From the IMG/VR virus record IMGVR_UViG_2576861133_000001: a stretch of 19,349 nt of DNA; one strand, written 5' to 3'. The stretch's first letter is position 1; every line of letters starts with the position of its first letter. The notes under the pieces were generated by a model, which worked only from the letters and a program-made list of their open reading frames with translations, was not told where the DNA came from and searched no databases. Below are positions 1-17,202 of the stretch, piece by piece. The stretch is from a virus (lineage: Duplodnaviria > Heunggongvirae > Uroviricota > Caudoviricetes). The position numbers and the translations under genes were made by a program.

Positions 1-144
1 CCTCACGAGGCGTGTGTGCCTTACCGCCACCTTTTCCCATACAGCCTTCCCCTGAATAAATTAACCGCCACTTGCCATTCCGTACAGAAGTCGGATATCC
101 TTCGCCCGAAAAGCATGAAACACATTTCTGCCATGCTAAAGAGA

Positions 145-174
145 AACCCCGGTATCAGCAGATACCGGGGTTTT
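145..174. terminator. Rho-independent terminator-like hairpin, possibly bidirectional; may end the minus-strand late operon about 210 nt after gene I
   Basis: Perfect 10-bp stem ccccggtatc (147-156) / gataccgggg (161-170) with a 4-nt loop, followed by tttt (171-174) on plus and flanked by an A/T-rich stretch on the other side. Confidence 0.5.
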
Positions 175-245
175 CTTTCATGCCCACCGATAATCCTGTT
201 GGTTAAAACCGGTAATGGCATAAAAATTCTGAATATCTTCACATT

Positions 246-273
246 TTCACAAACTGACTGTGGCGCGTATAAT
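246..273 (+). promoter_or_regulatory. Sigma70-like promoter candidate (TTCACA, 16-bp spacer, TATAAT)
   Basis: -35-like ttcaca at 246-251 and consensus -10 tataat at 268-273 with a 16-bp spacer; no ORF with a ribosome-binding site follows before the 339-379 terminator. Confidence 0.35.
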
Positions 274-338
274 TTCTCTGCGTTAATTTTTTTGTCGTGA
301 TATAAGAATAATTCCTTACACTTAATCTTCGTAACTCT

Positions 339-379
339 CCCGCAGTTCCTGTCCGCGATCACTGCGGGATTTTTTTATT
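339..379 (+). terminator. Plus-strand rho-independent terminator
   Basis: Stem cccgcagt (339-346) / actgcggg (361-368) followed by atttttttatt; on the minus strand the stem is not followed by a U-run, so it is plus-specific. Confidence 0.5.
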
Positions 380-383
380 CTTT

Positions 384-1316
384 TTACCCCTGCCGCCCGA
401 TAACCACGACCTTTCCGCCCCCGCCTTCATCACGGGTACTGATGTCCTGGGATATACGGCGGGAGCCAACCAGCATTTCCCCGTAAGGCACCGGCATCGG
501 GTTACCCTGGGCAATCATGTTATCCAGGGAGGAAAAGTACGTGTTCTGTTTACCGTTATCCGTGCTTTTGTACTCCGGTGTTTTTGCCTTCGGGGCCAGC
601 ATCTGGGCCACACCGCCCAGTATCATGCTGGCCCCCAGTGAAAACAGCATCGTGGTGGCAGAAAAACCGCCGGCACTCAGGGCTGTACCCCATAACGCCA
701 TCGAGGCACCGGCAGTGAAGAAAGAGCCCACGATGGCTGCCGCCCCCAGCACAATCTGCAGTCCACCCTTTCCGGCCCCGGCCAGTCGCGGCACAATATG
801 GATGACCGTTCCCTCACCCAGCTGTTCGTGAAGACGGGCGTACACCGCCTCCGGTGCCGTGTCATAACCGGCAATACGTATCTGGTACCAGCCTTCGTTC
901 ATCTGACGGCGAAAGCCCGGCACCTGTAACGACAGCGCCCGGATGGCTTCCGCTGCCGTACCGGCAGTGAAGAAAGAGCCCACGATGGCTGCCGCCCCCA
1001 GCACAATCTGCAGTCCACCCTTTCCGGCCCCGGCCAGTCGCGGCACAATATGGATGACCGTTCCCTCACCCAGCTGTTCGTGAAGACGGGCGTACACCGC
1101 CTCCGGTGCCGTGTCATAACCGGCAATACGTATCTGGTACCAGCCTTCGTTCATCTGACGGCGAAAGCCCGGCACCTGTAACGACAGCGCCCGGATGGCT
1201 TCCGCTGCCGTGTTCACATACAGGCTGAGGCGGCGGCCAAATCGTTGTAAATCCCCGTGAAGGCAGATGCGTGCCAGTGGCGGTGACGCCAGACAGAATG
1301 CGTTCGTCGTTGCCAT
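384..1316 (-). CDS. I: Lambda-type tail tip assembly protein I, carrying an internal 84-aa tandem duplication
   Basis: 310-aa ORF with ATG at 1316; recalled lambda gpI-like segments (HGDLQRFGRRLSLYVNTAAEAIRALSLQ, KQNTYFSSLDNM); sits last in the M-L-K-I order; the first 34 codons overlap the K 3' end. Confidence 0.8.
   Translation of the reverse strand: MATTNAFCLASPPLARICLHGDLQRFGRRLSLYVNTAAEAIRALSLQVPGFRRQMNEGWYQIRIAGYDTAPEAVYARLHEQLGEGTVIHIVPRLAGAGKGGLQIVLGAAAIVGSFFTAGTAAEAIRALSLQVPGFRRQMNEGWYQIRIAGYDTAPEAVYARLHEQLGEGTVIHIVPRLAGAGKGGLQIVLGAAAIVGSFFTAGASMALWGTALSAGGFSATTMLFSLGASMILGGVAQMLAPKAKTPEYKSTDNGKQNTYFSSLDNMIAQGNPMPVPYGEMLVGSRRISQDISTRDEGGGGKVVVIGRQG
708..1211. repeat. Perfect direct tandem duplication, 2 x 252 bp, inside gene I
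   Basis: 708-959 is identical to 960-1211 base for base by manual comparison; the protein segment TAAEAIRALSLQ...GSFFTAG occurs twice. Confidence 0.95.
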
Positions 1317-1957
1317 TTTTCGGAATACCTCTCCCGTTTACTCAGTTGTTCAGGCAGATGGTGAAGCAGCTCACCGTTGCCGCAGTAAATGGCGGCATGG
1401 TTCGGTACCGAAGCACCAAAGCAGCACAGCAGAATATCGCCCGCCTGTGCAGAGGACAGGGGCACCCGGTAAAAGCCGGTGACCGCCATATTGTCCAGGT
1501 AAAGGTTCTGACCGTTGCGCCACCAGTCATCCTCGCGATGAAAATCCGGCATTTCAGTCCCCGCCAGATGATAAGCATCCCGGAACAGCGTGTAACAGTC
1601 CGTCACCCCGTGCTCAAAGCGCCGTCCTGTCAGATGTGGCACACAGCGGAATTTGTGAATGTCACCCCGGCAGACCAGCCACCAGGGCAGTGCGCTTTTT
1701 ATCTGCAGCCGCCGGTCAGCCTCGCTCAGCCAGGGCAGCCCACCGGGATGACTGTGGACCAGTGCCACAATCTCCCCCTGCATCTCTGCCCGCAGCCAGT
1801 CTTCCGGTGCGATACGAAAATACGCCTCCGGCTCTGCAGAAATATTCACACAAGGGATATACCACTCCCCCTCCGGCGTGCTTATCACGAAGCCGCACGA
1901 CTCCGCAGGCGCACACCGCCGGGCATGCGCCAGAATCGCTGATTCAGTCTGTGTCAT
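1214..1957 (-). CDS. K: Lambda-type tail assembly protein K (JAMM/MPN-like HSHPGG motif plus NlpC/P60-like Cys/His)
   Basis: Start set at the internal ATG 1957 (MTQTESAILAHARRC...), matching the recalled lambda K N-terminus; the ORF-track upstream extension overlaps L and is rejected; HSHPGG and DCYTL...PNHAAIY motifs are present. Confidence 0.8.
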   Translation of the reverse strand: MTQTESAILAHARRCAPAESCGFVISTPEGEWYIPCVNISAEPEAYFRIAPEDWLRAEMQGEIVALVHSHPGGLPWLSEADRRLQIKSALPWWLVCRGDIHKFRCVPHLTGRRFEHGVTDCYTLFRDAYHLAGTEMPDFHREDDWWRNGQNLYLDNMAVTGFYRVPLSSAQAGDILLCCFGASVPNHAAIYCGNGELLHHLPEQLSKRERYSEKWQRRTHSVWRHRHWHASAFTGIYNDLAAASACM

Positions 1958-1967
1958 AAACCGGGAT

Positions 1968-2918
1968 TTACTGCGAAAGTTTATTAATGGAAAGGAAACC
2001 GCCAAAATTGCCGACATTCCTGCGCAGTTCACACCCGCGCATGCACTTGCTGCATCTGTCCTTACGGATATCCGTGGTGGGGTTGTCGAACTCATCCGCC
2101 ACCGCAGGACCGTTATACCCGCATTCATCTCCCCGGTAATCCCACATACAGGTGTTCGCCAGCATGATGCGACCGGGAAACAGCGCCCCGTCCGTCTCGG
2201 TCGGTGTAGCCAGCACAAACGAGGCCGTCATGGCTGTCAGCTGCGACATCTGCTCCACCACCCAGCGGTCACTCAGCTCCTGCTCCGGGTCCGCCTCCGG
2301 ATTGCCCGCAACGAAATTCACCGCATCCAGAAAACGGGCATACACCCGGCGGCGGACCACCGTGGCCCCCACCAGACTCTGCAGGTCTTCCGCCATCCCG
2401 GTGACCAGACCGAACAGATTGGACACCGTCAGCGACGGTCTGGCACTGCTGCCCAGTGTAGCCAGCACAAACGAGGCCGTCATGGCTGTCAGCTGCGACA
2501 TCTGCTCCACCACCCAGCGGTCACTCAGCTCCTGCTCCGGGTCCGCCTCCGGATTGCCCGCAACGAAATTCACCGCATCCAGAAAACGGGCATACACCCG
2601 GCGGCGGACCACCGTGGCCCCCACCAGACTCTGCAGGTCTTCCGCCATCCCGGTGACCAGACCGAACAGATTGGACACCGTCAGCGACGGTCTGGCACTG
2701 CTGCCCTTCCCGCTCATCTCAAAACCGCTGCCGTCAATCGGGTATGCCTGATATTGCCGCCCCTGCCAGGTGACCGGCTCCCCTTTTTCATTCAGCTCAT
2801 TACAGAAAAAATACCGCTCACCGCCCTGTACCGTCAGGTCGATTTCCCAGAGTACCACCCGCGGTGACTGCTCTGACTTAACCGACTCGTTCAGACTTTC
2901 TTCGCGAATATCCTGCAT
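1968..2918 (-). CDS. L: Lambda-type minor tail protein L, carrying an internal 84-aa tandem duplication
   Basis: 316-aa ORF; N-terminus MQDIREESLNE and C-terminus NVGNFGGFLSINKLSQ match recalled lambda gpL; its ATG (2916-2918) overlaps the M stop as ATGA. Confidence 0.85.
   Translation of the reverse strand: MQDIREESLNESVKSEQSPRVVLWEIDLTVQGGERYFFCNELNEKGEPVTWQGRQYQAYPIDGSGFEMSGKGSSARPSLTVSNLFGLVTGMAEDLQSLVGATVVRRRVYARFLDAVNFVAGNPEADPEQELSDRWVVEQMSQLTAMTASFVLATLGSSARPSLTVSNLFGLVTGMAEDLQSLVGATVVRRRVYARFLDAVNFVAGNPEADPEQELSDRWVVEQMSQLTAMTASFVLATPTETDGALFPGRIMLANTCMWDYRGDECGYNGPAVADEFDNPTTDIRKDRCSKCMRGCELRRNVGNFGGFLSINKLSQ
2204..2707. repeat. Direct tandem duplication with a 252-bp period inside gene L
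   Basis: 2204-2454 is identical to 2456-2706 (251/251), with a single junction base at 2455; the protein segment GSSARPSLTVSNL...ASFVLAT occurs twice. Confidence 0.95.
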
Positions 2919-3259
2919 CAGTTCACCACCTGCTCAATCGTACAACTGAAATCACTGTGCCTGGCGTTATCTGTGACGCTCCACTCCCGGCACACCACCC
3001 TCACCGTCAGGTTATGTTTCGGCGGTCGCCACAAAAAGGCACGGTAACCACCATGCCACGATAAAAATTCATCCAGCCAGCGCCGGGTTGGTTCATCCGT
3101 CACCCGGAACACCGCCTGAAACGTCTTCAGTCTGGCATTAAGTCCCGTCGGTCGGCGCTGTTCATAACCGTCACCAAACCGAACCCTCACCACCGACGGT
3201 TTCTCACTCACCTGCATCCCTTCACGCGGGACCAGATGCAGCGTTTTTATCTCAGCCAC
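2918..3259 (-). CDS. M: Lambda-type minor tail protein M
   Basis: 113 aa with a GTG start at 3259; PSVVRVRFGDGY and C-terminal EQVVN match recalled lambda gpM; the start overlaps the tape-measure stop. Confidence 0.8.
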   Translation of the reverse strand: MAEIKTLHLVPREGMQVSEKPSVVRVRFGDGYEQRRPTGLNARLKTFQAVFRVTDEPTRRWLDEFLSWHGGYRAFLWRPPKHNLTVRVVCREWSVTDNARHSDFSCTIEQVVN

Positions 3260-6200
3260 TCAGCATTCCTCCGTCACGTCGCATGGACAGCATCACCGCC
3301 TGCACCCGCTGGTCAATCAGCTGCACAAGACTGCCTGCCGCCTCCGCCCCTATCTGTCCGTTAGCCCCGTCATTCTGAATGGCGATGTGGTAGACCGGGG
3401 AATACACCAGACCGGCACTGCCGTTCATACTGCCCACCGCGCGTACGCCCAGCGAGCCATCCGCCGCCCGGGTCAGGGGCATAATGGCTTCAGGTCCGGC
3501 TTCCCCCATCAGCCCGGCCCCTTTTGCAAACGCAAAGTACGTGGGCGTGTCCACAATGCTGTTGCTGTACGCACTCAGGTTTGCCGAGGTATACACGCCG
3601 CCTTTTGCATTGGCCACCGCACCGCCCAGCCAGTCACCAATGCTGCCAATAAATCCTCCCGCACCGGACATACCGTTTGCCGCCGTCTTAATTCCGTTGA
3701 CAATCGCAGCATTCATAAGAACTTTTGAGATTTCCTGCAGTACGGATGAGGCCCAGTTGCGCCATTCCACTTTGTTTCCGTTCAGCATCTCCGTGATGTT
3801 ATTCACCATCCCTGAGATACCCTCCGTCGCAAGCTGTGCTGCCTGTGAGGCGTAATCGGATGCATTGTCCACCCAGTTACTGAGCCCCTCCTGCAAGCCT
3901 TTCTGCCAGTCCGCACGCTGCGCATCCGATTCGGCATAAAAGGCTGCCTGGTCCTTAAGGCGTTCGCTCAGATACTGCGCGTTCTGTGCCCGTGCCTGTC
4001 TGTAAAAATCCTCACTGATATCCCCGGTCTGATACTGAGACTGAAGGTCCGCATCCTTCTGGCGGAAGCTGTCACGGATCTGCTGCAACTCCCGCATGCG
4101 TTCCCTGGCTCGTTCTCCCTGCCCGTATCCCAGCAGTTCGGCTTCATTTGATGCACGCGCAGCCACATTATCATTCTTCAGGGTCTCTTCCCGGGATCGC
4201 AACTGTTCCCGGATTTTTTGCTGGTCAATCAGGGCCGCGTTACGCAGCAGTTCCTGCTTCTGCATCTCCGTCAGGGTTTTCAGTTCGCCCTGCGCAGTCT
4301 GGTACTTCAGCTTCGCCAGCTCTGTATTCTGACCCGCCAGTGCCAGTTGCTCTTTCTGCTGCTTCAGTAGCCGGGAAAAACTGTCTTCCGCTTTTTCCGT
4401 CTCTGATTTTCCACCCCGGGATTTAGGTTTGTTCGCCTCGTTATTACGCCAGGCTTCCAGAGCATTACTGATATAACGCTGTCTCGCCTCCTGATACGAA
4501 TCCCCCACAAAACCAAGGTCATCCGCCGCATACCCCAGCCGGGCACGCTCTTTTTCCTCCCCCTTCAGTCGGGACAGGGCCAGCTCACGTTCTGTTTTTG
4601 TCAGGGCGCTCTGCTGTTTATCATCCAGGGTGGCCTGCGGCAGCCGTAACGGTACATTCACCAGTCCCTGACGCTGCTGAAGCAGTTCATTCCCCAGCCC
4701 CAGCAGACGGTTGAATTCCGTATGCTGACCGTTCATAACCAGCATGGACTGGTACACCTTATTCTGCTCTGCCGCCTGCTGACGAATTAACGCCACACGA
4801 CGGTCTTCCAGCCCGGCAAGCACATCCTGAATGGACTGCGCTTTTTCCTGCATCTGTGCCAGACGGGACTGCTCAACGGCAAGCTGCTCTGTTGCCTGAG
4901 AAAGCCCTTCCGTCACGGTCTTCACCGATGTCAGATGGTTTATCATGAATCCGTCACCGGTTGTCCAGCCAGGGTTAGCCAGAACATACTGATATCCAGC
5001 GATTTTTTCCTGCAGGGATTTCACCCGGCTGGCCTGTTCATCAATCAGCCGGTTCTGCTCTGCCAGCGCCGCCCGTGTTCGTCCTTCATTATCTGAGGCT
5101 TCAGGCAAAGACATTGACGGCGTTTTATGCGCGATTTCATCTATCGTCAGTGCATACTGGCGCGCTGACTCCCTGGCCTGCTCCTGATTCTGGTACAGCG
5201 TATACCATGCTGCTGCCCCCAGCATCACCAGTCCGGGTACGCCACCAACCAGTCCCAACGCACCAGTCATCAGACGTGAGCCCACCGCCGTTGTACTGTT
5301 CAGCTCATTCTGGGCTGCGGTTCTGGCAGCAATATTTCTGTTCAGGCGTTCCTGTGTGGCCGCCAGACGGGCTTCTGCAGCAATCTGCATCTCCGTCCCG
5401 CGGGCTGCCGCCACAGCCTGCTGTGCACGGTACACGGCTGCCCTTGCCCGCGCCGTGGCAATCTGCGTCCCCCTGAGCTGTGCTTCCGCCAGTGCCACTT
5501 CATTACGTGCTGCCGTCACAAGTCCTGCCGTGGCAGACACCGCTCCGGAGGCCATATTGCCAAAGTACCGGGCAACCCCGACGGCAACCAGCGCCCCCGC
5601 GGCTGTTGCCACATTATCAATATTACCGGCAACACCGTTCAGCACGCCGGAGAGCGTTTTCGTCGCTCCGCTGGCTTCATTCGCGCCACCCACCCAGGCC
5701 ATAAAGGCGTTTTCCACCTTTGTGATCCCGTCAGAGACCGTTTCCGGCATGGCGGCATATTCATCACGCAATACCCCCAGCTGGCTGATTAACGCAGGAA
5801 CGACTTTATCCGCCGTCAGTTTGCCGTCGTCCGCCATCGCCTTAAGGTCTTTACGGGCCACGCCCATACCCGCAGCCAGTGCACGTACGATCCGGTCTCC
5901 GCTTTCATTGACCGAATTAAATTCCTCACCGCGTAACACACCCTGTGCCAGCGCCTGGCTGAACTGGGTGATCACCGAGCCCGCCTCTGCCGTACTGGCA
6001 CCGGAGATTTTCAGCCCCGTGGAAATGGCCTCCGTCACCTTCAGCACATCATCAGCACTGTAACCATATTCACGCATTGAGGCTGCCGAGCGGGCAAACA
6101 GGGCCGCATTATCTGAAAATGCCGTGCCCGTCCGCTGGCTGATATCCATCAGCACTTTCTGTGATGACGAAAATTCATCGGATGACTGCGACGCCTGTTT

Positions 6201-6494
6201 CAGTCGGGCATTCACGGAACTCCATTCATCGGCCAGAGAAATCAGGTGTCCGGTGGCAAAGGCACCTGCAAATGCCCCCGCCGTTCCGGCAGCTGAAGCG
6301 CGGATTTCCGTCAACTGGCTGTTCAGCTCAGCCAGGGCGCGTCGCTGCACCCGGGCGACTGCGGCAGCCTGACGCCCGCCATTCTGCAGGGTCCGGTAAT
6401 ATTCACTGCCCATGCGGGAAGCCCGCTGGATCTCCGACTGGAATGACTGCGAATTTGCCGAAATTTTGATAATCAGTTCACGTAACGTCGCCAT
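3252..6494 (-). CDS. Tail tape measure protein (lambda H analogue)
   Basis: 1080-aa ORF between the GT chaperone and M; Ala/Gln-rich coiled-coil-like sequence with Gly-rich hydrophobic segments; ATG at 6494 preceded by ggagaaagg. Confidence 0.85.
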   Translation of the reverse strand: MATLRELIIKISANSQSFQSEIQRASRMGSEYYRTLQNGGRQAAAVARVQRRALAELNSQLTEIRASAAGTAGAFAGAFATGHLISLADEWSSVNARLKQASQSSDEFSSSQKVLMDISQRTGTAFSDNAALFARSAASMREYGYSADDVLKVTEAISTGLKISGASTAEAGSVITQFSQALAQGVLRGEEFNSVNESGDRIVRALAAGMGVARKDLKAMADDGKLTADKVVPALISQLGVLRDEYAAMPETVSDGITKVENAFMAWVGGANEASGATKTLSGVLNGVAGNIDNVATAAGALVAVGVARYFGNMASGAVSATAGLVTAARNEVALAEAQLRGTQIATARARAAVYRAQQAVAAARGTEMQIAAEARLAATQERLNRNIAARTAAQNELNSTTAVGSRLMTGALGLVGGVPGLVMLGAAAWYTLYQNQEQARESARQYALTIDEIAHKTPSMSLPEASDNEGRTRAALAEQNRLIDEQASRVKSLQEKIAGYQYVLANPGWTTGDGFMINHLTSVKTVTEGLSQATEQLAVEQSRLAQMQEKAQSIQDVLAGLEDRRVALIRQQAAEQNKVYQSMLVMNGQHTEFNRLLGLGNELLQQRQGLVNVPLRLPQATLDDKQQSALTKTERELALSRLKGEEKERARLGYAADDLGFVGDSYQEARQRYISNALEAWRNNEANKPKSRGGKSETEKAEDSFSRLLKQQKEQLALAGQNTELAKLKYQTAQGELKTLTEMQKQELLRNAALIDQQKIREQLRSREETLKNDNVAARASNEAELLGYGQGERARERMRELQQIRDSFRQKDADLQSQYQTGDISEDFYRQARAQNAQYLSERLKDQAAFYAESDAQRADWQKGLQEGLSNWVDNASDYASQAAQLATEGISGMVNNITEMLNGNKVEWRNWASSVLQEISKVLMNAAIVNGIKTAANGMSGAGGFIGSIGDWLGGAVANAKGGVYTSANLSAYSNSIVDTPTYFAFAKGAGLMGEAGPEAIMPLTRAADGSLGVRAVGSMNGSAGLVYSPVYHIAIQNDGANGQIGAEAAGSLVQLIDQRVQAVMLSMRRDGGMLSG

Positions 6495-6510
6495 TCACCT
6501 TTCTCCGGGC

Positions 6511-6533
6511 GTAAAAAAACCGCCTCAGCGGTT
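6511..6533 (-). terminator. Intra-operon hairpin with U-tract (attenuator-like) between T and the tape-measure gene
   Basis: Minus-strand stem aaccgc/gcggtt (6518-6523 / 6528-6533), 4-nt loop, followed on the minus strand by a run of six T; shares the motif AAAAAAACCGCC-N4-CGGTTC with the element at 14233-14258. Confidence 0.35.
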
Positions 6534-6541
6534 CTCATCAT

Positions 6542-6850
6542 TCATGACTGTGCTGCGAAGCTCAGCGCGTCTTCCAGCGCCGCAAACGGATCCACCTCCG
6601 GCTTATCCTCATCCTCGCCCCAGCAGAGCATGGCGTCCTTCAGTGCAACATTCATCCCCTGTGCCCCAAAAACCGCTTTCACGATCTGTGCATTACGGAT
6701 ATCCCCGCGCTCATCACCCAGCGGGGATACCCTGTCGAACTCCATCCACATCATCGCCTCGCTCACACTCAGGCTGTGCCGCAGTTCGGATAAGGTGCGC
6801 CCCAGACGGAGCGCAAGTCGCATCAGAAAGCGAATTTCCGGGCGGGCTAC
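6542..6850 (-). CDS. T-frame segment of the tail assembly chaperone GT fusion, reached by a -1 frameshift from G
   Basis: The ORF in the -1 frame relative to G is open from the slippery site to the stop at 6542; it encodes LRLGRTLSELR..., which resembles the T domain of lambda-type GT. Confidence 0.6.
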   Translation of the reverse strand, partial: VARPEIRFLMRLALRLGRTLSELRHSLSVSEAMMWMEFDRVSPLGDERGDIRNAQIVKAVFGAQGMNVALKDAMLCWGEDEDKPEVDPFAALEDALSFAAQS

Positions 6851-7221
6851 TTTTTTCTGGCCGACTCTGCATCAGCGATCAGTTCCAGTGCCTGACGCAG
6901 CAACCGGGCATGTACCGGACCATAGACGGCCAGCACCTGCTCACGGTCGTCCGGAGCGAACACCCGCTGCAGATCCGTATCACACAGGACATCGCAGAAC
7001 AGCGTCACATCCGCTTCTAGGTTACGGCGGGTTTTCGCCACCACCGACAGGGTATCGTCATCCTCTCCATCACCATTGAGCACTTCCTGCCACAGATACC
7101 AGGCCTCTGCCGAAGGCTCCCGCAGCACCACGCTGACATTACCCCATTCCGGCACCTTCACCGTTTTATGACGAAACCCTGACAGTCTGGCCAGCGCCAG
7201 CGTTTTCAGATCCTTTTTCAT
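6847..7221 (-). CDS. Tail assembly chaperone G
   Basis: Sits between the major tail and tape-measure genes; ends ...ESARKK immediately after the slippery heptamer; start chosen at ATG 7221 (MKKDLKT), though ATG 7269 is an alternative that would overlap the major tail gene. Confidence 0.65.
   Translation of the reverse strand: MKKDLKTLALARLSGFRHKTVKVPEWGNVSVVLREPSAEAWYLWQEVLNGDGEDDDTLSVVAKTRRNLEADVTLFCDVLCDTDLQRVFAPDDREQVLAVYGPVHARLLRQALELIADAESARKK
6850..6856 (-). promoter_or_regulatory. Programmed -1 ribosomal frameshift slippery heptamer A AAA AAG (G to GT)
   Basis: Minus-strand reading gcc aga aaa aag tag; heptamer A_AAA_AAG lies in the G zero frame two codons before the G stop; the -1 frame continues open into T. 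Confidence 0.6.
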
Positions 7222-7235
7222 GATGACCCATCCCC

Positions 7236-7952
7236 TTATCCGGCGGCTGCGCTCACTGTCACGGTGCATTCAACAGACGTCACACTCTGTGCTTTCTCTG
7301 CCGAATCGGTCACCACGCAGGTATATTTCCCCGCATCAGCGGACTGCGCACCTGGCTTACTGAAGGTGTCTGTCGTCTGCCCGTCAACCGGCTGACCATC
7401 CTTCTTCCAGGCGTATTTATACGGCGGCGTTCCCCCGTTGGCACTGACTGACATTGTCAGCAGCGCACCTGTATTCACGGTAAGTGTTTTATCCAGATTT
7501 TTCACAAACGCCAGCGGTACCACAAAGGACACCGGTTTGCCTTTCATACGCAGTGAAAACGTTGCTGCCACCACGCCGTTGGTACCGGATGACCAGGTGT
7601 GCTGACGCACTTCCGCCAGGAACTTAAAGCCCTTACCGGACGGAAACAGCACCTTAAACGCATACAACGCGTCATTGTCATAGGCATCACGCAGGGCGTT
7701 CTGGGCCTGATTCAGATAAAAATTACCCGACATGGAAATCTCAGACGACGCCCCCAGACCGTTGATGTTCTCCTGCTCGGTGGAGCAGAGCGTGGTCACA
7801 TCAATATCCTGTTTCTGACCAGCGGTGAACTGGACTTCCTTGATGGTGCAGTCCAGGCGCAGATATTCCGCCTTATCCATAGTTTCAGCAGTCGCCGGGG
7901 CAGATGAAATCATCACCTGCGTCAGCTGTGAGCGTTCATACAAAGCAGACAT
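7236..7952 (-). CDS. Major tail protein with a C-terminal Ig-like domain
   Basis: 238 aa; strong AGGAGG ribosome-binding site upstream of ATG 7952; its position before G/GT; C-terminal segment KYAWKKDGQPV...GKYTCVVTD resembles a bacterial Ig-like fold. Confidence 0.8.
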   Translation of the reverse strand: MSALYERSQLTQVMISSAPATAETMDKAEYLRLDCTIKEVQFTAGQKQDIDVTTLCSTEQENINGLGASSEISMSGNFYLNQAQNALRDAYDNDALYAFKVLFPSGKGFKFLAEVRQHTWSSGTNGVVAATFSLRMKGKPVSFVVPLAFVKNLDKTLTVNTGALLTMSVSANGGTPPYKYAWKKDGQPVDGQTTDTFSKPGAQSADAGKYTCVVTDSAEKAQSVTSVECTVTVSAAAG

Positions 7953-7964
7953 TCTGCCTCCTGA

Positions 7965-7989
7965 TAATAAAAAACCCGCACGCGGCGGG
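7965..7989 (-). terminator. Hairpin with U-tract immediately upstream of the major tail gene
   Basis: Stem cccgc (7975-7979) / gcggg (7985-7989) with the A-run 7965-7974 on plus, which reads as a U-run after the stem on the minus strand. Confidence 0.3.
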
Positions 7990-8018
7990 GTATGGGTTTT
8001 GTAGAAAAAAAGAAAAAG

Positions 8019-8363
8019 TCACACCGTGACCTGAAACTCCAGGGTTGCACGGTAACAGCGGTTTTCCGGAATATAGTCCTGCATTTCACTGACGGATCCC
8101 GGGGCCAGCAGCATTATGGCTTCACGGGCGTCCTGACGTATCTGACGCGCCTGCGTCACAGTCCCGGCATAAACGTCTATCTGCACCGACACTGAGGACT
8201 CCGCCTGCCCGCCCATCACGTCCGCAGACACCGATGAAATCAGGCTGAAAACCACCCACGGAAGCGCCACCGACGGCCTGCCATCCAGCAGGGGGACCAC
8301 ATACGGGTACACCTGCCCGCCGGCAAGATGCGCCAGATGAGGATACAAATCCGCCTCCGTCAT
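8019..8363 (-). CDS. Tail completion / tail terminator-like protein (DUF3168-like position)
   Basis: 114-aa ORF; its ATG overlaps the upstream stop as ATGA; assignment is by position between the gp10-like gene and the major tail gene. Confidence 0.55.
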   Translation of the reverse strand: MTEADLYPHLAHLAGGQVYPYVVPLLDGRPSVALPWVVFSLISSVSADVMGGQAESSVSVQIDVYAGTVTQARQIRQDAREAIMLLAPGSVSEMQDYIPENRCYRATLEFQVTV

Positions 8364-8806
8364 CGTCTCAGTACCTCATCAATGGCCCGGTTCATCCGCG
8401 CAATCGCCACCTGAGCTGCCTGTTCACTGCGCACATCAAACGCCGGGCGCACAAACGGGTGCGGTGGCATATTCACGGTCCCCATTTCCACAAACCGCCA
8501 GTAGAAAGCATTGCGCGGGTTATCCGCCTTCATGGTGTTATCGCTGTTACCGGTGTCCGGATTAACACCACGGATATGGACACCGGATTCCATCCCGCCA
8601 TCGCGGGAGCGCCGGGAAAGGACCACCACATTGCGGCGCAGTTTTCCCCTGCGTACCGGTGCCCGTGACACCACTTCTTCTTTCAGCACATTCGCACCCG
8701 CACGGGTTGCCTCACGCAGCACCCGGTTATTTTCCGCACCACTCAGAAGCTGCAAATCGCGGCTGATGTCCTCCAGCCCCGAAAAATCCAGCAGGGTTTC
8801 GATCAT
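8360..8806 (-). CDS. HK97 gp10-family head-tail joining protein
   Basis: 148 aa; translationally coupled at both ends by ATGA overlaps; sequence style and position are typical of the HK97 gp10 family (recollection). Confidence 0.6.
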   Translation of the reverse strand: MIETLLDFSGLEDISRDLQLLSGAENNRVLREATRAGANVLKEEVVSRAPVRRGKLRRNVVVLSRRSRDGGMESGVHIRGVNPDTGNSDNTMKADNPRNAFYWRFVEMGTVNMPPHPFVRPAFDVRSEQAAQVAIARMNRAIDEVLRR

Positions 8807-9153
8807 TTTTCCCCTCCCAGCCGACAGAGAATTTCCAGACGCCCGCCGGTCGCATCCGGCACGGGCAGCCCGACAACGTTCAGGATCCGGTCACGCCATG
8901 GACCACTCAGCACATGAAGTCGTGACGCTGCCGTGATTTCCCGACCGGACTGACCGCGCACCCAGATGCGGATTTCCGCCTGCGCCATTTCCGCACCGGA
9001 CTGCATCCGCTCCCGGCTGCTCCTGCCTCGGATATCCGCATGAATTTTCCCGCATGACACCCATTCTTCCGTCATTTCTCCGGCAGCGTTACGGGTTAAC
9101 ACCGGGTTCAGAACACTTATCATCTGTGTCAGACGACCTGCAGATATTGCCAT
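8803..9153 (-). CDS. Head closure / head-tail adaptor protein
   Basis: 116-aa ORF that is second after the portal in the head-tail joining cluster; stop overlaps the next start. Confidence 0.55.
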   Translation of the reverse strand: MAISAGRLTQMISVLNPVLTRNAAGEMTEEWVSCGKIHADIRGRSSRERMQSGAEMAQAEIRIWVRGQSGREITAASRLHVLSGPWRDRILNVVGLPVPDATGGRLEILCRLGGEK

Positions 9154-9162
9154 TCCCCCTCC

Positions 9163-9489
9163 TCATAACACCGTCGGACAACGCAAATCGTAAATCAGCA
9201 CGGAAACAGAAAACGGCAGCTCCCCCTGAAGCAGTTCTTCCCGCTCCGCAAGATCCGGATTCCGGTACAGCATCCCGGTCAGTCGCATGGCAGCCCCCTT
9301 CATCCGGGTTAATGCCTCGCCCGGGATCAGTTCACCGTCCTCACGGATCACTTTATCCCGGCTGCCCTGAATGTAGGCCAGCAGCACGGCGGTAGCCTGA
9401 CGAACCTTGTCCATCAGCATGTCATCATCCGCGTCATGGTCGACACGCAGATGTGCCTTGATCTCTTCCAGTGTCAGTAATGCCGTCAT
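9163..9489 (-). CDS. gp6-like head-tail connector protein
   Basis: 108 aa; N-terminal motif LTLEEIKAHLRVDHDADDD is typical of gp6-type head-tail connectors; its ATG overlaps the portal stop. Confidence 0.7.
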   Translation of the reverse strand: MTALLTLEEIKAHLRVDHDADDDMLMDKVRQATAVLLAYIQGSRDKVIREDGELIPGEALTRMKGAAMRLTGMLYRNPDLAEREELLQGELPFSVSVLIYDLRCPTVL

Positions 9490-12071
9490 TTTCCGCCTCC
9501 TGCATCCCGCCCACGTTTTGCAGCCAGGGTCCAGGCTGATGAATGAGCTTCTCCGGGTTTATCTTCGGTCATACTGTTGCAGTGCCACAGCGAGCCCCCC
9601 CACGTCACCGTATCGCCGGGGTGGTAGGTTTCACCGGCTCTGAACACACCGCGGTAGAGCATCACCGGCAGGGAAAATGTTTTTTCCGTACGCTGGCCAC
9701 TGCTCTGCCGGACCACCACAGAGAACAACCGCTCACCCGTCATGCTGACGTCAATATCCGCCACCCCGTCAACCAGGCATTCCCATCCCCGCATCCCGTG
9801 CGTTTTTTCATACGCCCGCCAGAGTCCGCCCTGGTGTGTGGCATACGTGCCCCGGGGAAAGGATTTTTGATCGTCAATGGCGGGGAGTATTTCCAGAGCC
9901 GTGGCATCACGCCCGTCCTGCGGAGCCGGCAGGGCACTCACCGCATCCAGAACCGCCTTCTGCAGAACATCCGGATCGTAGTCACGACCATCACGCGGAA
10001 CATGAATATGGCTTACCGCCTCCTTCACCATCTGTTCAAGCATCGGACGCACATCATCCGGGGTGAGACTTTTACCGTCTGCCGGCTGCGGAATATTTGC
10101 GACCGCATCATTCACCGCCTTCTGCAGAACATCGGGATCATAGTCACGACCGTCGCGCGGAACAGGGATATGGCTTACAGCCTCCTTCACCATCTGTTCA
10201 AGCATCGGACGCACATCATCCGGGGTGAGACTTTTACCGTCCGCCGGCTGCGGAATATTTGCGACCGCATCATTCACCGCCTTCTGCAGTACTTCCGGAT
10301 CGTAGTCACGACCATCACGCGGAACAGGGATATGGCTTACAGCCTCCTTCACCATCTGTTCAAGCATCGGACGCACATCATCCGGGGTGAGACTTTTACC
10401 GTCCGCCGGCTGCGGAATATTTGCGACCGCATCATTCACCGCCTGCTGCAGTACATCCGGATCATAATCACGACCATCACGCGGTACCGGAATGGCCCCC
10501 ACAGCGTCATCCACCATCGCCTGCAGAACCGGACGCACCTCATCCACCGTCACATGCTTCTGTAATACCGCCGACAGGGAAGTCAGTTTCTCTTCAAACG
10601 CTTGTGCCTGCGAGGCCATCTTCCCCTCAAATGTGCGCTGTAAATCCGCCAGCACTGTGGAGAATTCTTCTCCCAGTGCACGAATAATGGACAGTTCCCG
10701 TTCCGTCATTTTCTCAGTATCCCCCCTGAACATCGCTTTCACCGCATCATGCTCTGTTTCACTGATTGCCTTATTACCGTCAGATGCGCCGTCAGGCAGC
10801 TGTGATGAAACTGTTTTCCCGGCAGACGCGAACGGATCCTCACGGGCATCACGACGGGACAGCGCCTCCAGACTGTAGTTCTGCTGCTGAAGATACAGTG
10901 CATCACCGCCGGCCAGGGGCGGCAGGTTCTCCCGTTTACGGGCCTCATTGGGCGTGAGAAGCGTATTTTTCACCGCATCCCCCAGCGTTTTCATGCGCCG
11001 CTCACTGTCCATTCTCAGCAGCGTGGTGACATCAAATTCTGTACTCTCGTTTTCCCCCGTTTCCAGCGCCTCATCCAGTAACAGTTCAATGGACTCAATC
11101 AGCGTCTGCAGGCACTGGGAATAATACTGCTGCTCCAGCGCCTCCACGTTGTCACTGGAAGGCGGTTGTCCCACGCCAATCTTGTAGGCCGGGACACGGA
11201 ACACCGAACAGACAATTTCAGCGGTCATCTTCAGTTGTTCCACCGTCTGCGCATCCACAGGTGAAAACGTCGTGGGGTTGTATTTTGCCCCGTTGCTCAG
11301 AATGGCCGTTTTCCCCGCATTTTCGCCTGTATACCCGCTGTCCCAGTTGCTCTTCAGTTTTTTCGCATTTTCTTCCGTAATACTGCCGGGGATCTCAATC
11401 ACCCCGGACGGCCTGCCGCCATTTCTGAAAAAAGACGTCGAATTTTCCTGAATATGATGCCCCTGCGTGGCCGCCAGCCCGGCGGCATACACCGGCGGCA
11501 ATCCTATAAGCGGATGAAAAAAACAGTTAAACCGGTCGTGGATCACTTCCCGGGCAGGCACCGTCACCGCCTCCGTGATCCCGCAGTTCCGGTCCGGCGT
11601 GATGCGGTAGAACACCTCGCCGTCATCCGCCACCAGAGGTTCAACCCGGCTCCAGTCCAGAATACGCAGTTCTTTGATCTGCCCCCGGGCATTACGGATT
11701 TTCAGCACCACCGTATTGCCATGACGCAGTTTGGCGTTCAGCCACAGTTCAAAAAACTGGATGCGGTTCTGCTGGGCGTTGGGACGACGACAGAGGCGGG
11801 CAATATCCCCCCGGCGCGTTTCCCTGCGTATCCCATGCGCATCCGTCTGCATAAGACGCAGCCGCATTTTGGCGATATCCTGGGATATCAGCGAAATACA
11901 TGCAAACACCGCATGAAAGGAGAGGACGGCTTCAGGATCGGCTTTCACGCCCTGCTGCCAGGCGCCGGAAAAGGGCTCAGCCACCGCCTGAAACAGGCTG
12001 GTCCAGCCCGCCTCTCTTACGTCACGTCCTGATTTCTGGTTTTTTCGGGTTCGCCGTAAAAGGTTCCACAT
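9486..12071 (-). CDS. HK97-family portal protein with a roughly 350-aa C-terminal extension (tandem 54-aa repeats plus a terminal aromatic-rich domain)
   Basis: The N-terminal roughly 450 aa align by eye to HK97 portal (FRNGGRPSG...KTAILSNGAKY...FRVPAYKIG against recalled FGNGSRPSG...KTAVL...FGVPPHLVG); the C-terminal part is an uninterrupted extension of the same ORF. Confidence 0.8.
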   Translation of the reverse strand: MWNLLRRTRKNQKSGRDVREAGWTSLFQAVAEPFSGAWQQGVKADPEAVLSFHAVFACISLISQDIAKMRLRLMQTDAHGIRRETRRGDIARLCRRPNAQQNRIQFFELWLNAKLRHGNTVVLKIRNARGQIKELRILDWSRVEPLVADDGEVFYRITPDRNCGITEAVTVPAREVIHDRFNCFFHPLIGLPPVYAAGLAATQGHHIQENSTSFFRNGGRPSGVIEIPGSITEENAKKLKSNWDSGYTGENAGKTAILSNGAKYNPTTFSPVDAQTVEQLKMTAEIVCSVFRVPAYKIGVGQPPSSDNVEALEQQYYSQCLQTLIESIELLLDEALETGENESTEFDVTTLLRMDSERRMKTLGDAVKNTLLTPNEARKRENLPPLAGGDALYLQQQNYSLEALSRRDAREDPFASAGKTVSSQLPDGASDGNKAISETEHDAVKAMFRGDTEKMTERELSIIRALGEEFSTVLADLQRTFEGKMASQAQAFEEKLTSLSAVLQKHVTVDEVRPVLQAMVDDAVGAIPVPRDGRDYDPDVLQQAVNDAVANIPQPADGKSLTPDDVRPMLEQMVKEAVSHIPVPRDGRDYDPEVLQKAVNDAVANIPQPADGKSLTPDDVRPMLEQMVKEAVSHIPVPRDGRDYDPDVLQKAVNDAVANIPQPADGKSLTPDDVRPMLEQMVKEAVSHIHVPRDGRDYDPDVLQKAVLDAVSALPAPQDGRDATALEILPAIDDQKSFPRGTYATHQGGLWRAYEKTHGMRGWECLVDGVADIDVSMTGERLFSVVVRQSSGQRTEKTFSLPVMLYRGVFRAGETYHPGDTVTWGGSLWHCNSMTEDKPGEAHSSAWTLAAKRGRDAGGGK
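9869..10546. repeat. About 4.2 tandem copies of a 162-bp (54-aa) near-identical coding repeat inside the portal gene
   Basis: Period-162 registration at 9961, 10123, 10285 and 10447; the three central copies differ by only a few substitutions; protein unit DDVRPMLEQMVKEAVSHIPVPRDGRDYDPDVLQKAVNDAVANIPQPADGKSLTP. Confidence 0.85.
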
Positions 12072-12238
12072 TCGCCATGCTCCGCATCACGTTTCTTTTT
12101 CTGACCTGCCGGACGTCGCACCGTGATGTACTCCGCCTTTCCCAGGCGAACCAGCACCTCCGCACACGGCTGTGCCACATCACGGATATCCCCGGCCCGG
12201 GCATCATGCGTGCCCTGCAGATATCGGATCTTTGCCAT
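12017..12238 (-). CDS. Hypothetical 73-aa basic protein in the capsid-portal intergenic gap (doubtful)
   Basis: ATG-initiated ORF in the ORF track; weak ribosome-binding site; overlaps the first 18 portal codons out of frame. Confidence 0.2.
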   Translation of the reverse strand: MAKIRYLQGTHDARAGDIRDVAQPCAEVLVRLGKAEYITVRRPAGQKKKRDAEHGECGTFYGEPEKTRNQDVT

Positions 12239-12282
12239 AACCTGTTACGGGAGGCGCACGCCTCCCGTCCTCCTTATCAGAC

Positions 12283-14220
12283 TCAGCCGCCGGACGCACT
12301 GCCGTAGTTCACTCCGGTGATCACCGCCACCGCCGCAGTACGGCGACGACGCCAGTTGATCCAGCGCTCCGCACGGATGGCCACGCTGCCTGTCTGGAAC
12401 ATGGAAACCAGCTCCACCGGGGACGGCGTGGTACTGTCGCCGGTCGGCTCAGACTGCATTTCCAGTGATGCCTCGCGGGACATATCCACTGCCACGCCGC
12501 CGTCATCCGCCAGATAAATATCCGGGGCATTCACCAGCACCAGCTGGTCACCCACGTACTGGGAGACAATCACCGGCAGCCCCTGGAAGGAGCCACCCAG
12601 CAGGGTCATGTCCGGGTATTCCTTCTGACCCAGCGCATTTTTACGCATGGACAGTGCCAGGGCATTGGTGCTGGACATCAGCCAGACCGCACCGGTGGGC
12701 TGCAGGTTTGCTGCCACAAACTGTCCAAACGCAGCCTCTGCATCCGCATCCGGGTTACCGGTTGATGCCGTGCCCTTCACATCATGGGTGATGGACGCCG
12801 GGGAGACATCTGCCACTGCGGCTTTTTTCGGGTCCACAAAGTCTGTATCCAGACGCGCCACCACCGCTTCCGCCAGCGCATTACGGACCAGTGCATCAGC
12901 AGCCGGACTGGAAAAACGGATCAATTCTTCCGTCAGTACCGCAATGGCCGACACCTTCGCATGACTGAAGGTGATGGATTCAAAATCAAACTTCGTCAGG
13001 GGTTTTGCCTTACCCTCACCCACCCAGCCGGCAGCACCGCCGGACACCTGGGCGTGCACACGGATATTGAATGGCACCTGACGAAGTGCAGGGATCCCGC
13101 CCTGACCAAATCGCCCGATAATGGTCTGCGGACGCAGGTAATCAATAAAGTCCTGTGCGTATTCCTGATATTCAGACAGGCTGCCTGCCCACTGCGGATC
13201 CGTGGTGGTCCCCGCGCCCACTGCCGATTTCAGGACATGATGCAGACGACTGTCATCCGGATACTGACGACGGGCCACTTCCAGGGCTTCAGATCGGACG
13301 CCTTTAGCCGCAGCCAGCGATTTGGCAAAGCGGGCGAAGCCAATCCCCTTATCCAGTTTCTGCTCCACACGGATCACCGGCGCAGAAGCCACCGCGGCCA
13401 CATTCCCGTTACCGGCCTGTTTCACCGGCTGCGCCGTGGCGGCCTTACCGGCTTCCAGTTCACGCAGGCGCTTCAGGTGCGCATCCACCTGACGGATTTC
13501 CGCTGCGGTGTTGTCGTAATGCTCTTCCTCCTCCACATCCAGCGTGCGCCCTTCCTCTGCGGCTTTGGTCATGACCTCCTCAAGGGAGGCTGCCAGCGCT
13601 GCACGCTTGTTTTCAAAACTTTTAATCTGTTCGCCAATATTCATTATGGTCTTTTCCTTATGAAAAACGGTTGTTGACTGTGCCGCAGCGCCGGCAGAAG
13701 ATGCGATTTTCACCACCGGTTTCCGGTTGCCGGACGCGGCAGAAAACGGGCGGTCGTAAGATTTAATGGTCCGGATGGTGCATTCCGCATTCGCGGGCAC
13801 GGTGACGGCAGACACCTCCATCAGTTCCCAGCGCAGAAAATGCAGTCCGCCTCCGTCCAGAAAGGTGTATTCATGGGGACGGAAGCCCACGGACAGCCCC
13901 CTGACCAGCCCGGTCTTAATGGCCGCCCAGACCTCATCCAGCCGGGCAGCCAGTTGCGACGGCATATCCGGTACGGGCTTCACCAGTGTTGCCGTGATTT
14001 CCAGCCCTTCGCTGACCCGGCGCACCGTACACTGCCCCACCGGGCGGGAATGGTCATGCTGCCAGAGAAACGGGATCGCACTGCCAAACTCCGCGCCCTC
14101 CGGCTCCAGGATGTCACCATCCCGATCCGGAGAAGGCGTTGACGCAATCCCGGTGATCACCCGTTCATCCTCACTGAAGGATTTCACCGTCAGCAGGGAA
14201 CAGGCCCGTTTAAGAGTCAC
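12283..14220 (-). CDS. Fused HK97-family prohead serine protease (S78-like) and major capsid protein
   Basis: 645 aa; N-terminal protease-like motifs (GIASTP...LWQHD...GLSVGF...EVSAVTVPAN), a central coiled-coil delta-like segment, and a C-terminal HK97-fold capsid-like region; GTG start at 14220 preceded by AGGAGG. Confidence 0.8.
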   Translation of the reverse strand: MTLKRACSLLTVKSFSEDERVITGIASTPSPDRDGDILEPEGAEFGSAIPFLWQHDHSRPVGQCTVRRVSEGLEITATLVKPVPDMPSQLAARLDEVWAAIKTGLVRGLSVGFRPHEYTFLDGGGLHFLRWELMEVSAVTVPANAECTIRTIKSYDRPFSAASGNRKPVVKIASSAGAAAQSTTVFHKEKTIMNIGEQIKSFENKRAALAASLEEVMTKAAEEGRTLDVEEEEHYDNTAAEIRQVDAHLKRLRELEAGKAATAQPVKQAGNGNVAAVASAPVIRVEQKLDKGIGFARFAKSLAAAKGVRSEALEVARRQYPDDSRLHHVLKSAVGAGTTTDPQWAGSLSEYQEYAQDFIDYLRPQTIIGRFGQGGIPALRQVPFNIRVHAQVSGGAAGWVGEGKAKPLTKFDFESITFSHAKVSAIAVLTEELIRFSSPAADALVRNALAEAVVARLDTDFVDPKKAAVADVSPASITHDVKGTASTGNPDADAEAAFGQFVAANLQPTGAVWLMSSTNALALSMRKNALGQKEYPDMTLLGGSFQGLPVIVSQYVGDQLVLVNAPDIYLADDGGVAVDMSREASLEMQSEPTGDSTTPSPVELVSMFQTGSVAIRAERWINWRRRRTAAVAVITGVNYGSASGG

Positions 14221-14232
14221 ATCAGCCTCCTG

Positions 14233-14258
14233 AAAATAAAAAAACCGCCGGAGCGGTT
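14233..14258 (-). terminator. Intra-operon hairpin with U-tract between the terminase large subunit gene and the capsid gene
   Basis: Stem aaccgc (14243-14248) / gcggtt (14253-14258), loop cgga, followed on the minus strand by tttttatttt; same sequence family as the hairpin at 6511-6533. Confidence 0.4.
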
Positions 14259-14283
14259 CGTGATGGTTACAGTGTGAACAGGG

Positions 14284-15945
14284 TTATATGAAAAAAACCG
14301 CATATTCTTTCTTTTTCGGTTCCGGGTTAAGGGACATCAGGGAGACCGCATTGAACAGCGCCATCAGCGGGTCAATTTTTCCCCGTCCACTGGCCTGTTT
14401 GGTGATAAGAATGGCGTTACCTTTAGGCTCCACCCGGGCATTGCCGACACACCAGGCCATCAGGGGCTGGTCACCATGCACCAGCACCCCTTCAGCCAGT
14501 TTGCGCTCGGTGGTTTTAATGGCCCCGCCCAGTTTCCAGCCCTGGCTTATCCCCACCACAATTCCGTCGGGGATCCCGGCTTCCGCCAGTGAATCCAGAA
14601 TCTGCCCCACCCCTGACGGGTCAATACCGATATGGTCCAGTAACTCAGCCTCATGAATGCGACGCACATATTCCGCCACTTCCGCCGTGTCATCCCCGAC
14701 ACGCCGGACAATGGTCATATCTCCACAGGCAACAAGATCCTGAAACCGGGACGCCTCGCTCTTCCGTCGGACCACCGCGGTTTCATGCGCCCAGGCATGG
14801 CCCCAGCCCAGCCATTCGCGGGTCTCCCGGTCACGCCCAATCACATACATCCCCAGCAGATCATCCAGCCCTCCGCCGTCAATCCCCACCGTCACCACAT
14901 CAGCACGACGCAGGATATCGTCCAGGCTGATACAACGGCCCTGCTCTTCCCAGAAATCAGCCCCCGCCCAGCGGTCAGAGCGCAGGGCAAGACCAATTTC
15001 CACATTGGCGTGTTTTGACATGAACCCCCGGAATGTCTCTTCACCGGCTTCCCGGGCTTTACGGTACTCCCGGTACAGAAAGGCCTCATCCACTGAATAG
15101 CCGAGATTCGGATTGACCATGGCGAGGTTTTCCATCAGCAGGTTAGTCCCGCTTTCCACCATTTCAGGAGGGTGTTCAAATATCACCGGCAGAAAGTGCG
15201 GATCATGAATTTTGCCGTCGCGCACATCCCGGGCGTACTGCAGTTTCTGTCTGAACACCCCGGCGGGCGGTTCATTCGACTGGGTGGTCGTATACACCAC
15301 AAACCCTTCCGGGCGGGAGGCAAGGCCGCCTATGGCTTCACGTAACATGTCCTCCGCCTTGCACTGCTTGCCAAACAGCCACAACTCATCAATCAGCGTA
15401 CCCACGGACTTGATACCGGACACCGTATTCGGATCGGCTGCCACCACCTTCAGGGTGGTGTCCGTCACTCGGTGGGTGATGGTCCGGATATGGGTCTGTA
15501 CCTGGCAGAGGTCATCCAGATCATCGTCACGTCGTACCATATCCCGGGCAGGGTTGAAGGCGTTGGCCGCCACCTCCACAGTCGGGGCCAGAATCGTGTA
15601 ACCCGCCGCCTGCCGCCAGTTCAGTAACAGTGCAGTCATCATGATCCCCGCGGCCAGCGTGGACTTCGAGTTTTTCTTGGGGATAAGGATAAAAACTTCC
15701 TTGATATGGCGTACACCGGTCTGCGCATCGTAGGAGCCAAACAGGGCCGCCACCAGGTCAAACACCCACGGTGCACAGGACTCCCCGAACGTAGGGCTAC
15801 CAGGTGCATCCACAATCCGCAGTTGTTTAAAAATCGCCAGGGCATGTGCGGCCTCGTCCGGATAAATCGGATCCGGAATAATCGACAGCCCCTTTTTCAG
15901 GCGCTCTGCCCAGTCCGGGCAGGCTGTGCTCCATACAGGTATCAT
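14284..15945 (-). CDS. Terminase large subunit
   Basis: 553 aa; Walker-A-like LIPKKNSKST; C-terminal nuclease-like region; ATG overlaps the small-subunit stop as ATGA. Confidence 0.85.
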   Translation of the reverse strand: MIPVWSTACPDWAERLKKGLSIIPDPIYPDEAAHALAIFKQLRIVDAPGSPTFGESCAPWVFDLVAALFGSYDAQTGVRHIKEVFILIPKKNSKSTLAAGIMMTALLLNWRQAAGYTILAPTVEVAANAFNPARDMVRRDDDLDDLCQVQTHIRTITHRVTDTTLKVVAADPNTVSGIKSVGTLIDELWLFGKQCKAEDMLREAIGGLASRPEGFVVYTTTQSNEPPAGVFRQKLQYARDVRDGKIHDPHFLPVIFEHPPEMVESGTNLLMENLAMVNPNLGYSVDEAFLYREYRKAREAGEETFRGFMSKHANVEIGLALRSDRWAGADFWEEQGRCISLDDILRRADVVTVGIDGGGLDDLLGMYVIGRDRETREWLGWGHAWAHETAVVRRKSEASRFQDLVACGDMTIVRRVGDDTAEVAEYVRRIHEAELLDHIGIDPSGVGQILDSLAEAGIPDGIVVGISQGWKLGGAIKTTERKLAEGVLVHGDQPLMAWCVGNARVEPKGNAILITKQASGRGKIDPLMALFNAVSLMSLNPEPKKKEYAVFFI

Positions 15946-16505
15946 CCGTTGCCCTCATTATCGTTATTCACCACCAGTCGGGGGGGCGGTGGCACCGCAA
16001 AACGGTTAGCCGCTTTTTTCGCGGCATCACCTTTTGCCGATTTTTTCCCGGTATCCCCTTTTTTATGGTGCGTGAACTGCGCCAGACGCCAGGCCGCATC
16101 CAGTGCCAGTTTCGGATCAATGCAGAGGTTTTCCACCAGGATCCGCCCCATGGCTTTCACCGGATCGGGAAGACCATCCTCCATATATTCAATACCAGGA
16201 GACATCACCGCGGACGGTGGCATCTCCAGATTGTTTTCGTCCGGCTGTGGTATTGCAGCCGCCTCACGGCGACGGGGTTTATCCTCCTGCTCTGATTTTT
16301 TCTGCCGGTAAACAGGAACCTCATCCACCTCCACCGTCTCGCATTGTTTACGGGCTATAAACGCAAGCACCTCAGGATCTTTTGCCAGCTGCGAGCCTTT
16401 AACCCTGGCGGTCTTCGCCGAATAACCGGCGGCAATGGCTGACGCTGTTTTGTTTTTCCCGGACATGAGCGCCAGCGCAAATTTTCGTTTTTGCGTTGTC
16501 AGCAC
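15942..16505 (-). CDS. Terminase small subunit (Terminase_2-type HTH N-terminus)
   Basis: 187 aa; GTG start at 16505 preceded by GGAGGAGG; N-terminus LTTQKRKFALALMSGKNKTASAIAAGYSAKTA resembles small-terminase DNA-binding domains. Confidence 0.75.
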   Translation of the reverse strand: MLTTQKRKFALALMSGKNKTASAIAAGYSAKTARVKGSQLAKDPEVLAFIARKQCETVEVDEVPVYRQKKSEQEDKPRRREAAAIPQPDENNLEMPPSAVMSPGIEYMEDGLPDPVKAMGRILVENLCIDPKLALDAAWRLAQFTHHKKGDTGKKSAKGDAAKKAANRFAVPPPPRLVVNNDNEGNG

Positions 16506-16579
16506 AGCCTCCTCCCGGGTCCAGAACGCACTCAGCCGGGTATGGTTCAGCCCATTTTTCCCGGCGTCTCATGCCGCAA

Positions 16580-17161: not shown

Positions 17162-17202
17162 GTAAAATCCCCGTCATATGGCAATCAGTAAAGGAAATAA
17201 AT

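Follow-up and report, generated by a model that had tools for sequence, protein, structure and literature searches.

Perfect 252-bp tandem repeats in the tail genes L and I of a lambdoid prophage are very likely untrimmed contig overlaps

Background

In assemblies based on de Bruijn graphs, variants stemming from repeats that could not be resolved are concentrated at position k from the contig ends, while in string-graph assemblies such variants accumulate at read length from the ends (Briskine and Shimizu 2017, PMC5368935). Scaffolders can also insert gaps between contigs that truly overlap (PMC5368935). Typically, contigs of this kind stop k bases past a variant that distinguishes the repeat copies, and neighbouring contigs share k-1 bases. 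The locus described here resembles these contig-end artefacts in both respects, but the published cases are false SNP calls, whereas in our case tandem duplications, very probably false ones, appear inside genes. Two further differences are apparent: the overlap of 251 nt exceeds what is usual in bacterial short-read assembly, and the spacer base is called 'A' and not N.

Internal duplications are also known from nature. Tandem repeats in phage tail genes, for example those in tape measure genes that change tail length, consist of copies that have diverged or that recur among relatives. The repeats considered here are like natural tail-gene duplications in being internal to a gene and in frame. 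Unlike these, they are paired, each with a twin of the same length at the other edge of a repeat shared between prophages.

The protein in which the first of the two repeats is located belongs to the family of the lambda minor tail protein gpL (PF05100; PDB 8iyk, 8iyl, 8k35, 8xcg, 9e7m). The gene order M-L-K-I is as in lambda. When the repeat is collapsed to a single copy, the protein has the 232 aa of gpL, including the C-terminal cysteines, which bind an iron-sulfur cluster. As written in the window, however, and unlike lambda gpL, the protein contains residues 72-155 twice, and this is seen in none of the homologues compared.

Results

Organization of the window

The window, that is the whole stretch of 19,349 nt that was analysed, represents the late-operon half of a lambdoid prophage, all of it on the minus strand. 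The start of J is followed by I, K, L, M, a tape measure gene (1080 aa), the T/G chaperone genes and the gene for a major tail protein with an Ig-like domain. Beyond the latter, head-tail connectors, an 861-aa portal protein, a fused prohead protease-capsid protein (645 aa), the large and small terminase subunits, an HNH endonuclease and lysis genes are encoded. The tail-tip operon is lambda-like (H-M-L-K-I-J) and specifies the tape measure protein, M (PF05939), L, K (JAB plus NlpC/P60) and I (PF06805); in relatives, J adjoins I. The features that are important for the following analyses are listed in Table 1.

Table 1. Segments, genes and repeats at the left side of the window
Feature	Position	Strand	Remarks
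Segment X, P2-type-specific graph piece	1-959		from 251 nt before the first P1/P2 site (252) to 251 nt after the last site of the cluster (708)
J gene (a)	L001 1-3040; L002 1-2918; L003 14568-18040; L004 1861-5333		first 40 nt correspond to window 1-40
P2-type patch	window 252-2190 (collapsed backbone); L003 18252-19938
Tail assembly protein I gene	384-1316	minus	310 aa as read; true length probably 226 aa
Twin tandem repeat in gene I	708-1211		last 251 nt of X (709-959), spacer, first 251 nt of Y (961-1211)
Spacer 'A' between X and Y (1 nt)	960
Segment Y, repeat block common to both prophage types, native 709-2706	961-2454
Tail tip protein K gene (b)	1214-1957	minus	JAB/MPN plus NlpC/P60, annotated as C40 peptidase; untouched by either repeat
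Minor tail (tail tip) protein L gene	1968-2918	minus	316 aa as read; true length probably 232 aa (699 nt)
Reported tandem repeat in gene L	2204-2706		last 251 nt of Y (2204-2454), spacer, first 251 nt of Z (2456-2706)
Spacer 'A' between Y and Z (1 nt)	2455		creates a non-native Leu codon
Segment Z, P1-type-specific piece	2456-19349		from 251 nt before 2707 to 251 nt after the last variant site, 19098

a L001 to L004 are the prophage loci of AR_0086, AZ146, strain 21437 and S13 (at 2.79 Mb), respectively.

b The coordinates of K were carried over from the RefSeq annotation of L003.

The tandem repeat in the minor tail gene L

An earlier note on this DNA had described a perfect tandem repeat with one junction base and a period of 252 within a lambda-type L gene, the product of which was thereby extended from roughly 232 to 316 aa. 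Both statements were borne out. The two copies are identical at 251 of 251 positions, the base 'a' at 2455 lies between them, and the translation of the open reading frame contains a block of 84 residues, GSSARPSL...ASFVLAT, twice. An exact repeat of 251 nt cannot be obtained by chance. The copies are joined by the Leu codon CTG, while the native flanks are AAG upstream and CCG downstream. The joining base at 2455 is also unlike both native neighbours, which are g at 2203 and t at 2707. The event in L is a 251-nt copy plus one foreign base. It was considered whether this base could represent the P2-type allele of position 2707 (for the prophage types, see below), but P2-type prophages have C and P1-type prophages have T at this site. 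The base is therefore a spacer and not a variant.

The assignment to L is clear from the match to PF05100 (minor tail protein L; E = 1.1e-126), which scored 420 bits against a cut-off of 25. The match falls into two stretches, and hence the form in the window breaks the colinearity with the model. After collapsing the repeat, residues 1-232 could be aligned without a gap to residues 1-232 of the lambda tail tip protein L (PDB 8iyk; E = 3.8e-127), and RefSeq annotates a 699-nt L gene (WP_001296027.1) in the identical backbone.

A twin repeat in the tail assembly gene I

A second perfect tandem repeat of 252 bp (708-959/960-1211), which the earlier note had missed, was reported by Tandem Repeats Finder as well as by a repeat finder. 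It is located in the tail assembly gene I, the product of which matches PF06805 in two stretches. This repeat can be rewritten as a 251-nt copy, an 'A' at 960, and another 251-nt copy; it reads 252/252 because the spacer A960 happens to equal the native base at 708. The repeats in L and I have therefore the common form 251 + A + 251 with a period of 252, in genes that are 1.5 kb apart. The overlap has the same length at both joins, although the sequences of the repeat units are not related. The occurrence of events with one and the same length and form in two different genes suggests a process governed by a fixed parameter rather than biology.

The reading frame is maintained in both cases. 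The repeat in I is codon-aligned, and the one in L is aligned only if a substitution in the last codon is allowed. Deliberate design of codon-aligned duplications, or an arbitrary edit, was considered as well, but is disfavoured by the coincidence of the repeat edges with mosaic boundaries of the DNA and by the 252-nt signature at the window ends, both described below.

Two prophage types share the block between the repeats

The window, with the two extra blocks collapsed, was compared with two types of prophages. P1-type prophages possess an HK97-like head module and are represented by those of AR_0086 (L001) and of S13 at 2.25 Mb (L006). P2-type prophages contain a lambda-like head module and are represented by those of AZ146 (L002) and of S13 at 2.79 Mb (L004). 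The locus of strain 21437 (L003) provided the RefSeq annotation.

In comparison to the P1-type locus L001, differences are dense from 252 to 708, and only two SNPs, at 1876 and 2190, follow thereafter. Window positions 2456 to 19349 are 100% identical to the P1-type prophage of AR_0086 over 16,894 nt, and the BLAST segment against this locus begins at 961. P2-type prophages are identical to the window without exception from 1 to 2706 and diverge from 2707 on. Strain S13 harbors both types, and here the sequences common to both extend from 709 to 2189 and from 2191 to 2706, separated by the SNP at 2190 and bordered by mismatches at 708 and 2707. The shared block, native 709-2706, covers the 3' part of L, all of K and the 5' part of I. 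Its first 251 nt and its last 251 nt are exactly the duplicated segments, a coincidence of repeat edges and paralogue borders shown on relatives carrying both prophages (S13).

The collapsed backbone as a whole is a P1-type prophage with a P2-type patch comprising the spacer between I and J, I, K and the 3' end of L. Among 5,426 complete genomes, this mosaic was found in one, strain 21437, which also carries two further related places besides the mosaic. The patch reflects either genuine gene conversion among prophages of the same genome or a scaffold path that is chimeric. In any event, the source genome must carry one copy differing at 252-708 and another one differing at 2707-19098. If the source was a common genome with one prophage of each type, the window would in addition be a chimeric walk from a P2-type left arm through the shared block into a P1-type right arm. 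Alternatively, the source could be a genome like that of strain 21437, in which the mosaic is present in a complete assembly.

The window ends and graph pieces show the same length parameter

The signature of 252 nt was also detected at the ends of the window. The first difference between P1 and P2 is found at 252, and 252-251 = 1, the first position of the window. At the other side, the last mismatch to the P2-type locus L002 is at 19098, and 19098+251 = 19349, the last position; after this mismatch, an exact block with L002 follows (19099-19467, 369 nt). Both offsets were predicted from the graph model before checking, and both were confirmed. Thus, all four contig ends, including the two window ends, are at position 252 from a site that is variant between P1 and P2. 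Apparently, the window constitutes an entire scaffold that begins and ends at branch points of a graph.

Compacted de Bruijn graphs were built from the real prophages L001 and L002, and also from the S13 pair, L004 and L006. With k=252, pieces identical to window 1-959 were obtained from L002 (2879-3837) and L004 (5294-6252), and the piece from L001 (4951-21844; 16,894 nt) was identical to window 2456-19349. The L004 piece came from the S13 pair, the P1-type locus of which (ending after 4,669 nt) matched the start of segment Z. Shared pieces at k=252 tile segment Y from its first base, with SNP bubbles as the sole interruptions. At k values of 127, 201, 249, 250, 251, 253, 254, and 301, neither of the segments 1-959 and 2456-19349 was reproduced. 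The lengths of the segments add up exactly to the window, 959+1+1494+1+16894 = 19349, and both fillers are 'A'.

Searches for the junctions and the long proteins

Stretches of 201 nt across the junctions yielded matches in thousands of E. coli genomes, with a level of at least 99% in about 790-840 of these. Among the matches listed, the hits always consist of two pieces that extend over 251-252 nt of the record, corresponding to a single copy. For a more stringent search, 50-mers centred on the junctions were used, since these match only where the junction itself exists. Neither the L-junction nor the I-junction 50-mer had a match in 5,426 complete E. coli genomes. In addition, a 46-nt pattern for the L junction was absent from viral (IMG/VR) contigs, GTDB species genomes and JGI metagenomes, and a 42-nt pattern for the I junction was absent from viral (IMG/VR) contigs. 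The 316-aa L and the 310-aa I proteins were both absent from an exact-sequence index of 153 billion gene positions.

When the two 252-bp blocks are taken out, the remaining 18,845 nt of the window occur as one uninterrupted, identical stretch in the chromosome of E. coli strain 21437 (NZ_CM190145.1). This strain possesses a 100% identical backbone with neither repeat; its annotated L and I genes have 699 and 582 nt, respectively, and the operon is ordinary. L is also present as a single copy in all E. coli relatives among the matches listed.

Discussion

From these analyses, the repeat in L and its twin in I are very probably untrimmed joins of overlapping contigs and not mutations, with L of 232 aa and I of 226 aa both being single-copy proteins. 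According to the proposed origin, the sequence would derive from an E. coli genome that contains at least two related lambdoid prophages and that was assembled from short reads by means of a graph. As these would be near-identical over native 709-2706 and different at either side, the de Bruijn graph would split into the segments X, Y, and Z. Each arm, X and Z, would reach 251 nt into the repeat, corresponding to k = 252 as node length with an overlap of 251 nt, or to k = 251 if k denotes the length by which contigs overlap. A scaffolder would then have placed X, Y, and Z in this order but left the 251-nt overlaps unmerged, with one filler base per join. The outcome would be an apparent perfect in-frame tandem duplication of 252 bp in each of the two genes, I and L. 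Where an overlap is expected but not detected, some scaffolders insert a lone 'n', and the filler may, at a guess, have been such an 'n' that was later written as A. Two observations count against untrimmed overlaps. A node length of 252 with an overlap of 251 lies beyond what the most widely used bacterial assemblers allow by default, and the collapsed mosaic is present in one complete genome only.

Other explanations have to be weighed against untrimmed overlaps. Two real and very recent tandem duplications, independent in-frame events of 252 bp in L and I of one prophage, are highly unlikely. Template switching and unequal exchange, accompanying recombination between prophages where the shared block ends, are among the conceivable mechanisms. 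The maintenance of the reading frame in both repeats would fit such events, and their position at the edges of a homology block could link them to inter-prophage recombination, the more so as the backbone is itself a P1/P2 mosaic. Yet length and form (251 + A + 251) do not differ between the two events, microhomology is found at neither junction, and an extra non-templated base is present at the L junction. A biological duplication mechanism would also leave the 252-nt offset at the window's own ends unexplained, and X and Z are exact graph pieces at k=252. Moreover, none of the collections searched contains the junctions, and neither does the one genome whose backbone is 100% identical. A version of this scenario, with both duplications being genuine and generated jointly in a single isolate as a side effect when two resident prophages recombined precisely at the borders of their shared block, is exceedingly unlikely; if true, the tail-tip proteins L and I would each possess an internally doubled segment of 84 residues. 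The earlier note had left the choice between a very recent event and an assembly artefact. With the twin in I and the signature at the window ends, the evidence speaks for the artefact.

Artefacts of another kind are very improbable, too. Polishing, local reassembly or editing after assembly could have inserted 252-bp blocks where reads from paralogous prophages are mis-mapped, and the alignments of such reads would indeed be interrupted precisely at 708/709 and 2706/2707, where the repeats have their outer edges. However, arbitrary editing would not hit the mosaic boundaries to the base, and 1-959 and 2456-19349 being exact graph pieces at a single k would not be accounted for. The same is true for the start and the end of the window, 251 nt beyond variant sites, and polishing was rejected on account of these ends. 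We give virtually no credence to an old domain repeat, according to which the L proteins of this lineage naturally carry the 84-aa block in two copies. Nothing but the presence of two copies in the window speaks for it. The copies are 100% identical at the DNA level, the Pfam model and lambda gpL (232 aa, PDB 8iyk) are single-copy and the collapsed L aligns to the latter without gaps, and about 790 genomes matching the flanking halves at at least 99% are single-copy among the matches listed. This alternative, raised in the earlier note, was consequently dismissed, as the homologues (the Pfam model, lambda gpL and the E. coli matches listed) have one copy.

If the repeats are untrimmed overlaps, as the constant length parameter suggests, they are of little consequence for the biology of the phage, and the prophage would encode an ordinary lambda-type L of 232 aa and an ordinary I. 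It had been suggested that a non-functional L might indicate a defective prophage, but this suggestion is unsupported, the 84 extra codons very probably being an untrimmed overlap of 251 nt plus a spacer of 1 nt. The repeat in L has no bearing on whether the prophage is defective, and an argument for a defective tail tip cannot be made from the repeats in L or I. For quality control, the repeats are more significant. Perfect in-frame 'duplications' of equal length at the edges of sequences shared by paralogous prophages should be regarded as a recognisable mark of contig overlaps that have remained unmerged. The sequence alone is sufficient for the diagnosis, which depends on whether repeat edges and contig ends keep a constant distance from the sites at which the paralogues differ. 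Gene callers turn such joins into plausible longer proteins, and these may enter protein databases as contaminants and lead searches for domain duplications astray.

Further features of the window

Several other features were noted along the window. The gene for tail tip attachment, J, carries the annotation of a frameshifted pseudogene in each of the four related prophages compared. This frameshift is a better lead on a defect of the prophage, or on recoding, than the repeat in L.

The spacer between I and J, 344 nt in length, is the most diverged stretch between the P1 and P2 types. Its plus strand, which is antisense to the operon of the tail genes, contains a sigma-70-like promoter close to the consensus (TTCACA-16-TATAAT, 11 of 12 matches) at 246-273, followed after about 65 nt by a GC-rich hairpin with a T-run (338-378). 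This arrangement (244-378) could specify a transcript of roughly 100 nt, as predicted from the promoter and the hairpin. The fold z-score of the candidate is -2.0, and Rfam scans of the window gave no known RNA family.

The portal gene (9486-12071, minus strand) contains a 162-bp unit (54 codons) repeated about 3.7 times at 9940-10545, with copies that are 87-94% identical. The repeat is present also in AR_0086 and strain 21437, and it is therefore considered a genuine, older in-frame repeat located in the C-terminal extension of the portal protein, and thus the true case of a natural internal duplication in this window. A small open reading frame of 73 aa (12017-12238) is located between the portal gene and the next large reading frame on the minus strand (12283-14220), in which a prohead serine protease domain (Peptidase_S78) is fused to an HK97-type major capsid domain. 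Finally, an imperfect tandem repeat of two 27-bp units (85%) was detected at 16009-16062 in the reading frame of the small terminase subunit, close to where this gene overlaps that of the large subunit; it is unlikely to be of significance.
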